IMG/VR virus record: IMGVR_UViG_2636415418_000002
Source: a virus
Lineage: Duplodnaviria; Heunggongvirae; Uroviricota; Caudoviricetes
Strand: one strand, 5' to 3'
Length of the DNA: 5,273 bases
Shown here: positions 2,015-5,273 of the stretch, piece after piece
Numbering within the stretch: position 1 is the first letter of the stretch
Layout of the letters: the number at the start of each line of letters is the position of its first letter
Program-made: the position numbers and the translations under genes
The notes under the pieces: model-generated
What the model was told of the DNA's origin: nothing
Database searches by the model: none
The model's input: only the letters and a program-made list of their open reading frames with translations

Positions 2015-2691
2015 CACCGGACATTATCCTGCAGCGTACCGGGATCGACGTGAGAGCTGTCGAACAGGGGGATGATGCGTGGCACAAATTACGGCTCGGC
2101 GTCATCACCGCTTCAGAGGTTCACAATGTGATAGCAAAACCCCGCTCCGGAAAGAAATGGCCTGACATGAAAATGTCCTACTTCCACACCCTGCTTGCCG
2201 AGGTTTGCACCGGTGTGGCTCCGGAAGTTAACGCTAAGGCGCTGGCCTGGGGAAAACAGTACGAGAACGACGCCAGAGCCCTCTTTGAGTTCACTTCCGG
2301 CGTGAATGTTATTGAATCCCCGATCATCTATCGCGACGAAAGTATGCGCACCGCCTGCTCTCCCGATGGTTTATGCAGTGACGGCAATGGCCTTGAGCTG
2401 AAATGCCCGTTTACCTCCCGGGATTTCATGAAGTTCCGGCTCGGTGGTTTCGAGGCCATAAAGTCGGCTTACATGGCCCAGGTGCAGTACAGCATGTGGG
2501 TGACGCGAAAAGATGCCTGGTACTTTGCCAACTATGACCCGCGTATGAAGCGTGAAGGCCTGCATTATGTCGTGGTTGAGCGGGATGAAAAGTACATGGC
2601 GAGTTTTGACGAGATGGTGCCGGAGTTCATCGAAAAAATGGACGAGGCACTGGCTGAAATTGGTTTTGTATTTGGGGAGCAATGGCGATGA
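2011..2691 (+). CDS. exo: Exo (Red-alpha) 5'-3' dsDNA exonuclease, 226 aa
   Basis: The translation [40 protein letters not shown]... matches lambda exonuclease as I recall it, with the same 226-aa length. The gam-bet-exo order is the lambda Red arrangement. Confidence 0.95.
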
Positions 2692-2846
2692 CGCATCCTC
2701 ACGATAATATCCGGGTAGGCGCGATCACTTTCATCTACTCCGTTACAAAGCGAGGCTGGGTATTTCCCGGCCTTTCTGTTATCAGAAATCCACTGAAAGC
2801 ACAGCGGCTGGCTGAGGAGATAAATAATAAACGGGGGGCTGTATGA
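2688..2846 (+). CDS. Small hypothetical protein (52 aa), positional equivalent of lambda orf60a
   Basis: Not in the ORF track. Hand translation gives [52 protein letters not shown]. Its ATG overlaps the exo stop (ATGA at 2688-2691) and its stop overlaps the next gene's ATG (ATGA at 2843-2846). Lambda likewise has a small ORF overlapping the exo stop. Confidence 0.5.
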
Positions 2847-3400
2847 CTGATTTCACCGGAAGCAATACTCCTGCCGAACATCGCGACAGCTGGCGCACAC
2901 CACCAGAGATTTTTGCTGCGCTTAATGCAGAGTTCGTTTTTCAACTTGATGCTGCAGCCAGCGAAAAAAACCGACTATGTCGGCTTTTTATCTCACAGGA
3001 GCAGAACACATTAACCACTTCATGGCCTGAAGCAATGGGATATGCCTCTGGTTATGTCTGGTTGAATCCACCATACAGCAATATTTCCCCTTTTGTGAAA
3101 AAGGCAGCCACTGAAAACAAATTCAGTAGTGTGGGATGTGTAATGTTATTGCCTGCTGACACATCTGTCGGATGGTTTCATGAAGCGATACAAACCGCCA
3201 GTGAGGTCAGATTCATCACGGCAGGACGACTGGCATTTATTAACCCACTCACCGGGAAACCCGTCAGTGGAAATAATAAAGGCTCGATGCTCATTATCTG
3301 GCACCCATACCCCCGTACACACTGCCACTTTACGACCGTTGATCGTGGAGAGTTGATGGCGTTCGGCTCAAGGATTCTTGCCCGTCGGGAGGCTGCATGA
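2843..3400 (+). CDS. Putative phage DNA N6-adenine methyltransferase (small Dam-like orphan MTase), 185 aa
   Basis: Contains the (D/N)PPY catalytic motif in WLNPPYSN, and an N-terminal WRTPPEIFAALNAEFVFQLDAAAS segment that resembles the WxTP...LDxAA signature I associate with the phage 'Dam' methyltransferase family (Pfam PF05869, from memory). No adjacent restriction endonuclease candidate is visible. Confidence 0.75.
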   Translation: MTDFTGSNTPAEHRDSWRTPPEIFAALNAEFVFQLDAAASEKNRLCRLFISQEQNTLTTSWPEAMGYASGYVWLNPPYSNISPFVKKAATENKFSSVGCVMLLPADTSVGWFHEAIQTASEVRFITAGRLAFINPLTGKPVSGNNKGSMLIIWHPYPRTHCHFTTVDRGELMAFGSRILARREAA

Positions 3401-3480
3401 CAACCACGGAATGCATTTTTCTGGCAGCGGGCTTCATATTCTGTGTGCTTATGCTTGCCGACATGGGACTTGTTCAATGA
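3397..3480 (+). CDS. 27-aa hydrophobic micro-protein (single predicted TM helix)
   Basis: Not in the ORF track. Hand translation gives MTTTECIFLAAGFIFCVLMLADMGLVQ*. A strong SD, GGGAGG (3386-3391), lies 5 nt before the ATG. The ATG overlaps the MTase stop and the stop overlaps the orf71 ATG, both as ATGA. Codons (ctg, gcg, ggc, gcc, gac) are better here than in the alternative long frame. Confidence 0.45.
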   Translation: MTTTECIFLAAGFIFCVLMLADMGLVQ

Positions 3481-3692
3481 CACCTCAGCAGGAAAACGCC
3501 CTTCGCAGCATTGCCCGTCAGGCTAATTCTGAAATCAAAAAAGCCAGACAGCAGTTTCCGGATAAAAACGTCGATGACATTTGCCGTAGCGTACTGAAGA
3601 AGCACCGCGAAACGGTAACGCTGATGGGATTCACACCGACTCATTTAAGCCTGGCGATCGGCATGTTAAACGGCGTCTTTAAGGAGCGATGA
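3477..3692 (+). CDS. Hypothetical protein, 71 aa
   Basis: ATG at 3477 overlaps the orf27 stop. Translation is MTPQQENALRSIARQANSEIKKARQQFPDKNVDDICRSVLKKHRETVTLMGFTPTHLSLAIGMLNGVFKER*. The track's 3378 start is a TTG and the in-frame ATG at 3411 lacks an SD and would overlap orf27. Product not recognised. Confidence 0.55.
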   Translation: MTPQQENALRSIARQANSEIKKARQQFPDKNVDDICRSVLKKHRETVTLMGFTPTHLSLAIGMLNGVFKER

Positions 3693-3784
3693 ACATGAAA
3701 AGCAAAATCATCAGGGAGCTACAGGCTCCTTTTTTATTATTCGCATTCACCCTCAAGCGTATTAACCAACAATTCAGGGATTAA
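3689..3784 (+). CDS. Possible 31-aa micro-ORF (uncertain: it contains a terminator-like hairpin)
   Basis: Not in the ORF track. Hand translation gives MNMKSKIIRELQAPFLLFAFTLKRINQQFRD*. Its ATG (3689-3691) overlaps the orf71 stop (3690-3692) as ATGA. A hairpin plus T-tract inside it is the competing explanation for this stretch. Confidence 0.3.
   Translation: MNMKSKIIRELQAPFLLFAFTLKRINQQFRD
3714..3741 (+). terminator. Terminator-like hairpin (GGAGC-tacag-GCTCC) followed by TTTTTTATTATT
   Basis: Seen directly: a 5-bp stem (3715-3719 pairing with 3725-3729), extendable by one G-U pair, then six T at 3730-3735. The stem is short, so this is a weak intrinsic terminator at best. It overlaps the orf31 candidate. 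Confidence 0.3.
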
Positions 3785-3790
3785 TGGAAG

Positions 3791-4009
3791 ATGGCAGACA
3801 TCATTGATTCAGCATCAGAAATCGAAGAATTACAGCGCAATACAGCAATAAAAATGCGTCGTCTGAACCACCAGGTTATATCTGCCACTCATTGTTGTGA
3901 GTGTGGCGATCCCATAGATGAACGAAGACGCCTGGCCGTTCAGGGTTGTCGGACTTGTGCAAGTTGCCAGGAGGAGATCGAACTTAAGAACAAACAATGG
4001 GGATTGTGA
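3791..4009 (+). CDS. TraR/DksA-family C4 zinc-finger protein (probable RNA-polymerase secondary-channel binder), 72 aa
   Basis: The segment CCECGDPIDERRRLAVQGCRTCASCQ shows the CxxC-G-x-P-I-x-E-x-R-R ... CxxC pattern characteristic of TraR/DksA. Its size matches TraR-like proteins of F plasmid and lambdoid phages. Only a weak SD (AGGGA) lies 10 nt upstream. Confidence 0.75.
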   Translation: MADIIDSASEIEELQRNTAIKMRRLNHQVISATHCCECGDPIDERRRLAVQGCRTCASCQEEIELKNKQWGL

Positions 4010-4056
4010 TGGCCTCAAAGCAGCAAATTTCAACATCGTCCAACTGAGGTGTAAAA

Positions 4057-4335
4057 ATGTTCAGAATCATTTTTCCTAACACCTGGTACGTCGACCACCA
4101 CGGCACTCCCTGCAAAATCCTGCGTTCTACCCACAACAAAGTTCACTACATCCGAAAAGGCAGAACATGTATCGCCAGCATGTTCCGCTTTAATCATGAC
4201 TTTGAACCTGTGAATAAAGCTGATGCAGATCGGATAGCAGAAGAGATCGAAACGGCAGAACACATTAAGAAGTTACGTGACATGCGTTCAAAAAGCAGAG
4301 GTAACCATGGAATCATACAGCCTCACACTCGATGA
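4057..4335 (+). CDS. Hypothetical protein, 92 aa
   Basis: ATG at 4057 is preceded by GAGG (4046-4049) with a 7-nt spacer. Translation begins MFRIIFPNTWYVDHHGTPCKILRSTHNKVHYIRKGRTCIASMFRFNHDFEPVNKADADRIAEEIETAEHIKKLRDMRSKSRG.... Its 3' end overlaps the xis start by 29 nt. Product not recognised. Confidence 0.5.
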   Translation: MFRIIFPNTWYVDHHGTPCKILRSTHNKVHYIRKGRTCIASMFRFNHDFEPVNKADADRIAEEIETAEHIKKLRDMRSKSRGNHGIIQPHTR

Positions 4336-4657
4336 GGCCTGTCAGTTTCTCAAGATATCCAGACCTACCGCTACCAACTGGATACGAACAGGCCGCCTAC
4401 AGGCAACACGCAAAGACCCCACTAAACTAAAATCTCCTTACCTCACAACACGACAAGCCTGCATTGCGGCTCTTCAGTCTCCGCTGCATACTGTCCAGGT
4501 GAGCGCGGGTGATGGCATAACAGAGGAAAGAAAATGTCACTCTTCCGCAGAGGTGAAATATGGTACGCCAGTTTCACATTGCCGAACGGTAAAAGATTTA
4601 AACAGTCTCTTGGAACAAAGGACAAAAGGCAGGCGACAGAACTCCATGACAAGCTAA
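4307..4657 (+). CDS. xis: Excisionase, P22-type (116 aa)
   Basis: The translation [38 protein letters not shown]... has an excisionase-type winged-helix/HTH N-terminus and resembles phage P22 Xis as I recall it. GAGGT (4298-4302) lies 4 nt before the ATG. It sits immediately upstream of, and overlapping, int. The track start at 4277 has no SD. Confidence 0.8.
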
Positions 4658-5273
4658 AGGCTGAAGCATGGCGGGTCAGCAAACTTGGTGAAATACCTGA
4701 TATAACGTTCGAGGAAGCGTGTGTCAGGTGGCTTGAAGAGAAAGCACATAAAAAATCACTGGACGATGACAAAAGCCGGATCGGATTCTGGCTTCAACAT
4801 TTCGCAGGAATGCAACTAAGAGACATTACTGAATCAAAAATTTATTCAGCAATGCAGAAAATGACGAACCGGCGTCATGAGGAAAACTGGAAACTCAGGG
4901 CAGAAGCATGCAGAAAAAAAGGGAAACCTGTTCCAGAATACACGCCAAAACCAGCGTCCGTTGCAACGAAGGCTACGCATCTTTCATTTATAAAGGCCCT
5001 ACTAAGAGCCGCAGAGCGTGAATGGAAAATGCTGGATAAGGCACCAATTATTAAAGTGCCTCAACCAAAGAATAAACGGATCCGCTGGCTGGAGCCCCAT
5101 GAAGCACAAAGGCTGATTGATGAATGTCCGGAGCCATTAAAGTCTGTTGTTGAATTTGCACTGGCAACAGGGTTAAGACGCTCGAACATCATCAACCTTG
5201 AATGGCAACAAATAGATATGCAGCGCCGGGTGGCATGGATAAACCCGGAAGAGAGTAAATCAAACCGCGCAAT
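4534..5273 (+). CDS. int: Tyrosine integrase, P22-type (5' portion; 3' end truncated by the window edge)
   Basis: ATG at 4534 is preceded by GAGGA (4523-4527). The frame stays open to the window end (~246 codons): [53 protein letters not shown]...[20 protein letters not shown].... This closely resembles P22 Int as I recall it, and the TGLRRSN segment carries the first catalytic Arg of tyrosine recombinases. It is absent from the ORF track because there is no stop in the window. Confidence 0.9.

Follow-up and report, generated by a model that had tools for sequence, protein, structure and literature searches.

The 5,273-nucleotide stretch of IMG/VR virus record IMGVR_UViG_2636415418_000002 (Caudoviricetes), referred to here as the window, carries between exo and a xis-like gene a block of seven open reading frames (ORFs; positions 2688–4335) that is very probably the classical exo–xis region of bacteriophage lambda, i.e., the distal accessory part of the early-left (pL) operon of a lambdoid prophage. 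The block is already known, annotated, and studied, and it is ordinary apart from one ORF of 27 amino acids (aa), which, judging from its pattern of sequence constraint, most likely encodes a genuine, translated small hydrophobic protein. This constrained ORF, absent from the standard annotations checked, appears to be what is new here and constitutes a modest annotation lead. Compared with lambda, the block shows two module swaps, namely a Dam-family methyltransferase gene in place of orf63 and a DUF4222 gene in place of ea22/ea8.5.

Identity and layout of the exo–xis block

In DNA alignments of the window against lambda, phage ev243, and phage PhiR30_1, divergence was restricted to the two exchanged cassettes, and the window was near base-for-base identical to lambda over orf60a, the 27-aa ORF, orf61, a 31-aa ORF, and orf73. 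Protein identity to lambda was 98% for orf60a (across 52 aa), 100% for the 27-aa and the 31-aa ORF, and 90% for orf73. Homologues of orf60a, orf61, and orf73 occur in lambda order; orf63 (DUF1382) is not present between orf60a and orf61, where the methyltransferase cassette is found instead, and ea22 is not present downstream of orf73, where the DUF4222 gene takes its place. Near-identical annotated loci in E. coli and phages give these genes matching names, and nothing was found that contradicts the identification of the block. The exo–xis region has a dedicated literature (PMC6213356, PMC8614690, PMC4195576, PMC4699033, PMC9239242), in which effects on the lysis–lysogeny decision and on host transcription are described.

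All genes discussed here lie on the + strand unless stated otherwise. The block follows gam (927–1223), bet (1229–2014), and exo (lambda exonuclease, 2011–2691), the upstream border, whose product is 98% identical to lambda Exo and which bears the same name in a near-identical annotated E. coli locus. Within the block, orf60a (DUF1317, 52 aa, 2688–2846, starting at the second ATG of a 54-aa ORF in the program-made list) is followed by the gene for a 185-aa orphan Dam-family N6-adenine DNA methyltransferase (2843–3400), the 27-aa ORF (3397–3480), orf61 in its full-length 71-aa form (3477–3692, starting at an internal ATG of a listed 104-aa ORF), the 31-aa ORF of doubtful coding status (3689–3784), orf73 (TraR/DksA-like, 72 aa, 3791–4009), and the DUF4222 gene (92 aa, 4057–4335). 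The downstream border is formed by a gene for an excisionase-like helix-turn-helix (HTH) protein (xis-like, 116 aa, 4307–4657), which matched HTH_17 (E-value 8.7e-9) and the excisionase family phrog_2907 (E-value 1.7e-51), and an integrase ORF begins at ~4579, its frame staying open to the window end and running off it. With exo, the xis-like gene, and the integrase all on the + strand, the block occupies the exo–xis position on the pL-transcribed strand. Direct reading of the sequence showed an ATGA stop/start overlap at each junction from bet through the 31-aa ORF, including that of the exo stop with the orf60a start. A scan of the window against Rfam gave no match. Upstream of gam, a 68-aa ORF (645–851, +) is named “phage encoded cell division inhibitor protein” in a near-identical annotated locus.

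The exo–xis regions of lambda and of the Stx phages Phi24B and 933W (orf60a-orf63-orf61-orf73-ea22-ea8.5) share with the window the backbone genes, two predicted terminators, and a predicted promoter. The window differs from lambda in its xis/int module, which is of a different type and integrates at tRNA-Thr beside proA, and in its orf61, which is intact at 71 aa where the reference copy of lambda carries a frameshift.

A first-pass annotation of the same DNA had described seven ORFs between exo and a xis-like gene, and these were recovered on the + strand at the same positions and with the same sizes. Its view of the interval as a variable accessory region also stands, with cassettes swapping at gene boundaries, as do its calls of an orphan methyltransferase and of a TraR-like RNA polymerase binder, the latter having already been characterised in lambda. 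It had further counted five unrecognised small proteins; the 52-aa, 71-aa, and 92-aa products are in fact orf60a/DUF1317, orf61, and DUF4222, the 27-aa and 31-aa products are identical to lambda sequence, and the lambda and Stx-phage literature cited above is dedicated to this very region.

Coding status of the two smallest ORFs

The 27-aa ORF (peptide MTTTECIFLAAGFIFCVLMLADMGLVQ) exactly fills the sole “gap” in the operon, its ATGA overlaps joining it to the stop of the upstream cassette on one side and to the orf61 ATG on the other, and a GGAGG motif lies 4 nt upstream. Its product is strongly hydrophobic (GRAVY 1.62; 2.44 in a 17-aa hydrophobic window) and contains neither Lys nor Arg. In lambda, the ORF corresponds to complement(30925..31008).

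Constraint was assessed on 207 full-length copies of the locus from IMG/VR and other sources, with each distinct variant counted once; the test used 85 indel-free haplotypes and variants occurring in at least two distinct haplotypes, with the overlaps between neighbouring genes left out. The result was unchanged when variants were instead required in at least two loci. Polymorphism counts were used because no truly divergent homologues exist: a protein search for divergent orf61 homologues suitable for dN/dS returned Escherichia only, the entries P0167, P0170, and P0171 being near-identical DNA with frameshifts, and a contig scan for divergent orf61 copies yielded mostly lambda contamination of unrelated assemblies and no divergence beyond Escherichia.

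In the 27-aa frame, nine recurrent variants were synonymous and two non-synonymous (p = 1e-4, with 24% synonymous expected), which was the best result of the six frames, and the peptide is unchanged in 180 of the 207 loci despite common silent polymorphisms. The positive control, orf61, gave 16 synonymous and 4 non-synonymous recurrent variants (p = 3e-7). Over the 27-aa region, the frame that extends orf61 upstream had 1 synonymous and 10 non-synonymous variants, and three other frames had 2 and 9 each; none of these was significant. The wobble-aligned antisense frame (7:4, p = 0.0067) echoes the sense signal. This echo of the synonymous excess was seen in − strand frames over both genes (7:4 over 3411–3476 for the 27-aa ORF; 13:7 over 3481–3688 for orf61), and since a wobble-sharing antisense frame echoes the sense signal, a frame-specific constraint test must compare all six frames.

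The 27-aa ORF is unannotated in NC_001416, J02459, phage 434, mEp332, and E. coli genomes processed with PGAP, and automatic callers have reported it as “hypothetical protein” on ~980 contigs. A literature search for the 27-aa and 31-aa peptide sequences returned no match. Small hydrophobic peptides of about 20–50 aa include the type I toxins DinQ and TisB and the accessory subunit KdpF. The 27-aa peptide would be of similar size and has a single hydrophobic stretch whose length would suffice for a membrane helix, which is an analogy only; no sequence similarity to small hydrophobic peptides of the DinQ/TisB/KdpF type was found, basic residues are lacking, and to our knowledge neither an antisense RNA nor a toxin phenotype has been described for it. 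In clustering at 90% protein identity, the 27-aa peptide was grouped with two unrelated 428-aa glycosyltransferase-like proteins (P0006, P0007), which is probably a clustering artefact of very short sequences.

The 31-aa ORF is annotated in phage 434 and mEp332 and was not annotated by PGAP in a near-identical E. coli locus. Its better-placed start is ATG 3695 (29 aa), with AAGGAG 8 nt upstream; in 94 loci, GTG stands in place of the first ATG. Recurrent variants (three synonymous, five non-synonymous; p = 0.31) were indistinguishable from neutral and included the radical changes R7M, T19I, and L20P at appreciable frequency. Within this ORF lies an intrinsic-terminator-like hairpin, t2, predicted by terminator scan and RNA folding at 3713–3731 (+) and followed by a T6 run to ~3741; in the RNA it reads AGGGAGCU-ACA-GGCUCCUU and then U6, with a centroid energy of −10.2 kcal/mol and a fold z-score of only −1.3. 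A predicted promoter, p1 (+; −35 TCATCA at 3708–3713, −10 TTTTATTAT at 3732–3740), overlaps it. The t2 stem core is invariant in the 207 loci save for two unlinked singletons, and because of this invariance covariation in the stem is not assessable; the stem variants at 3718 and 3726 sit in different loci and were rejected as a compensatory change. Both t2 and p1 had been predicted by Bloch et al., and lower mRNA downstream of t2 was measured in lambda (PMC4195576). According to a review, lambda ribosome profiling had flagged an ORF of 31 aa (“orf2313”) within this conserved block; from its size and position we infer that it corresponds to the 31-aa ORF described here.

Two alternative readings were weighed for these ORFs. 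The 27-aa ORF might not be a gene at all, and the 76-nt stretch would then serve as a spacer or belong to the 5′ end of an orf61 extended to 93 aa. The 93-aa form appears in the annotation of numerous records from Stx phages and E. coli, has been called on ~1000 contigs, and was used in published modelling, and the missing calls for the 27-aa ORF in the lambda, 434, and mEp332 records and by PGAP, as well as its lack of basic residues, which is unusual for a membrane peptide, point the same way. Two further observations weigh against a 27-aa gene: Donaldson's review of lambda ribosome profiling lists only a 7-aa and a 31-aa extra ORF in the block, and the orf27–orf61–orf31 module shows low diversity (at least 95% identity in every phage record), because of which the constraint test rests on 11 recurrent variants. 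Those variants nevertheless separate the two frames, as the orf61-extension frame looks neutral while the 27-aa frame does not and also surpasses the antisense frame, and the peptide stays constant where silent polymorphisms are common. The published model of the 93-aa form moreover folds residues 24–93 only, the ATGA overlap on the cassette stop is found in orf63 and dam versions alike with the mosaic joint immediately 5′ of the ATG, and the GGAGG motif is in place. A stop in the extension frame (G11*, 64 loci) was not used as evidence against the 93-aa form, since it lies upstream of the 93-aa ATG (3411). On balance, a spacer or orf61 extension is possible but doubtful, and a gene for a small hydrophobic protein is preferred. 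For the 31-aa ORF the balance tips the other way. A functional small protein of 31 or 29 aa, beyond the overlap with terminator and promoter, would agree with the strong AAGGAG before ATG 3695, with a frame intact in nearly all loci, with annotation in some phage records, with the 31-aa ORF that a review cites from lambda ribosome profiling, and with a stop that lies 7 nt before the orf73 ATG and would permit coupling. The neutral-like variants stand against it, as does the replacement of AAGGAG by AAGGAA in 157/207 loci, and the sequence is already explained by the hairpin, the U-tract, and the predicted promoter. A functional protein is thus unlikely here, and the 31-aa ORF is most likely a by-product of t2 and p1; more speculatively, translation across the t2 hairpin could affect read-through or coupling to orf73.

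Orf61 and the published knock-out alleles

The 71-aa product matched phrog_303 (E-value 4.7e-36), i.e., orf61 in the full-length form known from Stx phages. At its start (3477), a change of ATG to GTG occurs naturally and is silent in the 27-aa ORF. An A-run of six in the window (3537–3542) and in nearly all other phages is a run of seven in the lambda reference (locus L004, ~3140–3195, − strand). The extra A shifts the frame of lambda orf61 after codon 22, which explains the truncation of lambda Orf61 by comparison with its Stx-phage counterparts; 16 of the 207 surveyed copies share the A7 run, and most of these are probably lambda itself. Two genes, the constrained hydrophobic 27-aa ORF and the 71-aa orf61 proper, appear to have been merged in the annotations of Stx phages (93-aa “Orf61”) and of lambda (61-aa “orf61”).

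Primers used for published knock-outs (PMC4699033, Table 2) were mapped onto lambda and the window. The lambda Δorf61 allele deletes lambda positions 30889–30971 (window 3434–3517), so that codons 13–27 of the 27-aa ORF and codons 1–13 of the 71-aa orf61 are missing. The Phi24B allele (window 3469–3641) takes away most of orf61 and, from the 27-aa ORF, its final three codons plus the stop. As the lambda deletion also truncates the 27-aa ORF, and as lambda orf61 is already frameshifted, the reported phenotypes (PMC6213356) are not assignable to Orf61 alone. Some of what has been ascribed to orf61, i.e., the bias in the lysis–lysogeny decision, the effect on prophage induction, and possibly the old “bin” block of host replication, may be due to the 27-aa peptide.

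In contigs filed under unrelated species (L214–L227 and others), orf61 has the match length of 214 nt expected of the +1 A frameshift of the lambda laboratory strain. Their labels include Shewanella, Pseudomonas, Kitasatospora, Paenibacillus, Oceanobacillus, and a Segatella metagenome-assembled genome, among others, and four of the contigs are ~48 kb long. These occurrences appear to stem from contamination of public assemblies with lambda DNA used as a spike-in or in cloning.

Distribution and mosaicism

A 2.1-kb query (2600–4700) was compared by megablast with complete E. coli genomes (n = 5426). Part of it was matched in 4314 genomes (~80%), and the whole query at 99% identity or more, i.e., the exact arrangement, in 222. 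E. coli strain AR_0061 carries the locus as a prophage integrated at tRNA-Thr, beside proA. In NZ_CM168008.1, the E. coli genome with the best match, an IS1 element interrupts a copy of the locus that is otherwise 99.8% identical.

Among 199 loci spanning the slot between orf60a and the 27-aa ORF, only two alleles were found, orf63 (~175 loci) and dam (24 loci). Both cassette joints fall exactly at gene boundaries, the swap being bounded by shared “...GCTGTATG” on one side and shared “ATGACAACC...” on the other, and the ATGA overlap with the next ORF is kept in the orf63 and the dam version. Of the loci with dam, 15 have DUF4222 and 6 have other modules, and orf63 is combined with all types; the orf63/dam and downstream cassettes assort semi-independently, which is ordinary lambdoid mosaicism. 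The arrangement with DUF4222 downstream of orf73 was also found in phage ev243 and in 45 of the surveyed loci. The G+C content of the methyltransferase cassette (2851–3300) is 0.45, compared with 0.49–0.52 in its flanks, which is consistent with a foreign origin.

The two exchanged modules

The methyltransferase matched PF05869 (Dam; E-value 1.8e-56, 190.9 bits against a cut-off of 28.1), TIGR01712 (168.2 bits, cut-off 97.05), and phrog_111, and carries an NPPY catalytic motif at aa 75–78. No nuclease domain was found in the block, and the neighbours of the gene are orf60a and the 27-aa ORF/orf61; the enzyme is regarded as an orphan because no restriction gene adjoins it. Its nearest characterised relative is the Dam of the VT2-Sakai nin region (47% identity), followed by Dams of T1-like phages (43–46%). 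M.EcoVT2Dam of VT2-Sakai is reported to methylate GATC (PMC6602927), and GATC, with N6-methyladenine (m6A) as product, would accordingly be the most likely target here; this rests on family relatives of 43–47% identity, and the 47% identity to M.EcoVT2Dam does not by itself establish the target sequence, which weighs against a firm assignment. M.EcoVT2Dam, T1 Dam, and HP1 Dam share with the window enzyme the hidden Markov model (HMM) family, the size class, the NPPY motif, and an orphan, phage-borne status, with the difference that the window enzyme lies in the early-left operon and the VT2-Sakai Dam in the nin region. PhiR30_1 is the only isolated phage with this exact gene, and a search of PDB sequences with the methyltransferase detected no solved structure. 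Two other enzymes were not taken as relatives: M.EcoGIX, set apart by description only, as the literature presents it as plasmid-borne and specific for single-stranded DNA, and M.EcoMIV (ST131), set apart by location only, as in JJ1886 its locus tag and the 31-aa ORF lie far apart.

The 92-aa protein matched PF13973 (DUF4222; 69.4 bits, cut-off 27), a family that reaches prophages of Citrobacter, Enterobacter, and Salmonella and has a conserved 79-aa core and a variable tail. An AlphaFold2 model based on 33 sequences (mean pLDDT 84) has a beta-barrel at residues 10–52 and then a long helix at 54–82. Foldseek searches with this model gave no PDB hit at an E-value of 0.001 or below, and the search of PDB and BFVD gave only uncharacterised viral proteins. 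RgdR (ECs1581) is a prophage-encoded activator of LEE1 and the type III secretion system and a motility repressor with weak, non-specific DNA binding (PMC3378721, PMC10877973). It matched PF13973 (E-value 2e-23, 82 bits) and is 24% identical to the DUF4222 protein of the window. Both are prophage proteins of ~90–100 aa with a strong PF13973 match, an N-terminal barrel, and a C-terminal helical tail; RgdR lies in a P4-like cryptic prophage of enterohaemorrhagic E. coli beside a primase gene, whereas the window gene lies in the exo–xis region. From the model and this likeness, the protein might tentatively be described as a Tudor/SH3-like barrel with a helix, and possibly as a co-factor of transcription comparable to RgdR, its distant paralogue. 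It counts against such a role that the window protein has no RGD, a tripeptide that matters for RgdR activity; in RgdR, the motif (residues 20–22) lies just N-terminal of the aligned region. At its 3′ end, the DUF4222 gene shares 29 nt (4307–4335) with the xis-like gene, and as the tail past residue 79 is not conserved, this overlap is probably constrained mainly by xis. The xis-like gene in turn overlaps the integrase start by ~79 nt (~4579–4657).

Orf60a and Orf73

The 52-aa product matched PF07026 (DUF1317; E-value 2e-34) and phrog_1998. Its length tracks the downstream cassette (60 aa with orf63, 52–53 aa with dam), and the C-terminus is shorter than the 60 aa of lambda because that cassette differs. 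A terminator-like hairpin, t1 (2752–2774, +), with a 9-bp stem, six G-C pairs, and a T-rich tail, is predicted inside orf60a. We take it to be probably lambda tL3, for which the literature consulted yielded no coordinate. The t1 sequence is listed as a predicted terminator in PMC4195576 (Table 4). Genetic work has shown that the effect of orf60a and orf61 is to tilt the phage towards lytic growth (PMC6213356), and published models of both suggest small DNA-binding folds.

The 72-aa protein matched PF01258 (zf-dskA_traR; E-value 1.2e-8, 35.2 bits against a cut-off of 24.9) and scored slightly below the cut-off of the narrower NCBIfam model TIGR02419 (54.6 against 59.7). It contains DxxDxA in MADIIDSA (D3, D6, A8) and a four-Cys (C4) zinc-finger pattern, both shared with lambda Orf73 and F-plasmid TraR; the genomic slot is also that of lambda orf73. 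Lambda Orf73 competes for RNA polymerase with DksA, and its inhibition of rrnB P1 has an IC50 (half-maximal inhibitory concentration) of ~50 nM; D3 and D6 are required, host growth is slowed, and phage yield rises 3–4 fold, and the DxxDxA motif is required for the activity of both TraR and Orf73 (PMC9239242). By homology, the window Orf73 is a predicted TraR/DksA-like binder of the RNA polymerase secondary channel. Its C-terminal 10 residues differ from those of lambda Orf73. The orf73 ATG lies 7 nt past the stop of the 31-aa ORF.

Proposed working of the block

N-antiterminated pL transcription through gam-bet-exo is established lambda biology. On induction or infection, such transcription would run through gam-bet-exo and then the block, and translation would be coupled along the ATGA chain, the overlaps of which are seen directly. 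The predicted t1 (in orf60a) and t2 (between orf61 and orf73) would damp transcription that is not antiterminated; the reported drop in mRNA was measured in lambda. Bound at the secondary channel of RNA polymerase, Orf73 would shut off rRNA and ribosomal-protein promoters and raise phage yield 3–4 fold, as shown for the lambda protein, while orf60a and orf61 would, on genetic grounds, push toward lytic growth. The methyltransferase may add m6A to replicating phage DNA, likely at GATC, and could thereby forestall restriction or ensure that DNA in rapid replication stays fully methylated. The DUF4222 protein might, very tentatively, act as an RgdR-like transcription co-factor. The 27-aa ORF would be translated as a small hydrophobic protein, and the 31-aa ORF would be incidental to t2/p1.

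Implications

The first-pass annotation had put the block forward as a candidate set for counter-defence, that is, as uncharacterised anti-restriction or other anti-defence genes gathered in a variable hotspot. In favour of this, the orphan methyltransferase of a phage is a classical means against restriction, cassettes in this mosaic interval are exchanged at gene boundaries, and several block products are still without a known mechanism (PMC8614690). Yet five of the seven ORFs are conserved backbone, at least 95% identical over ~180 phage records, and the phenotypes reported for the region concern the lysis–lysogeny decision, prophage induction, and host transcription rather than defence evasion. 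No block protein matched an anti-defence family, and the lone PADLOC-related NCBIfam hit, to the HTH of xis, fell far below its cut-off. The generic anti-restriction role of a phage methyltransferase is thus the sole link, the proposal found no specific support, and we consider it very improbable. Most of the ORFs belong to known phage families and the 31-aa ORF shows no coding constraint, both of which count in part against the proposal; the 27-aa ORF, which is constrained, does not.

As first reported, the block is a rediscovery of lambda's exo–xis region and as such matters little. The swap of dam for orf63 is a clean example of gene-boundary mosaicism, by which a second and divergent enzyme of the Dam type comes under the control of early pL. 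What merits attention is the 27-aa ORF and the way in which it is bound up with orf61 as annotated: the orf61 knock-outs in lambda and Phi24B damage both genes, and the assignment of Stx-prophage induction phenotypes may therefore need re-examination.

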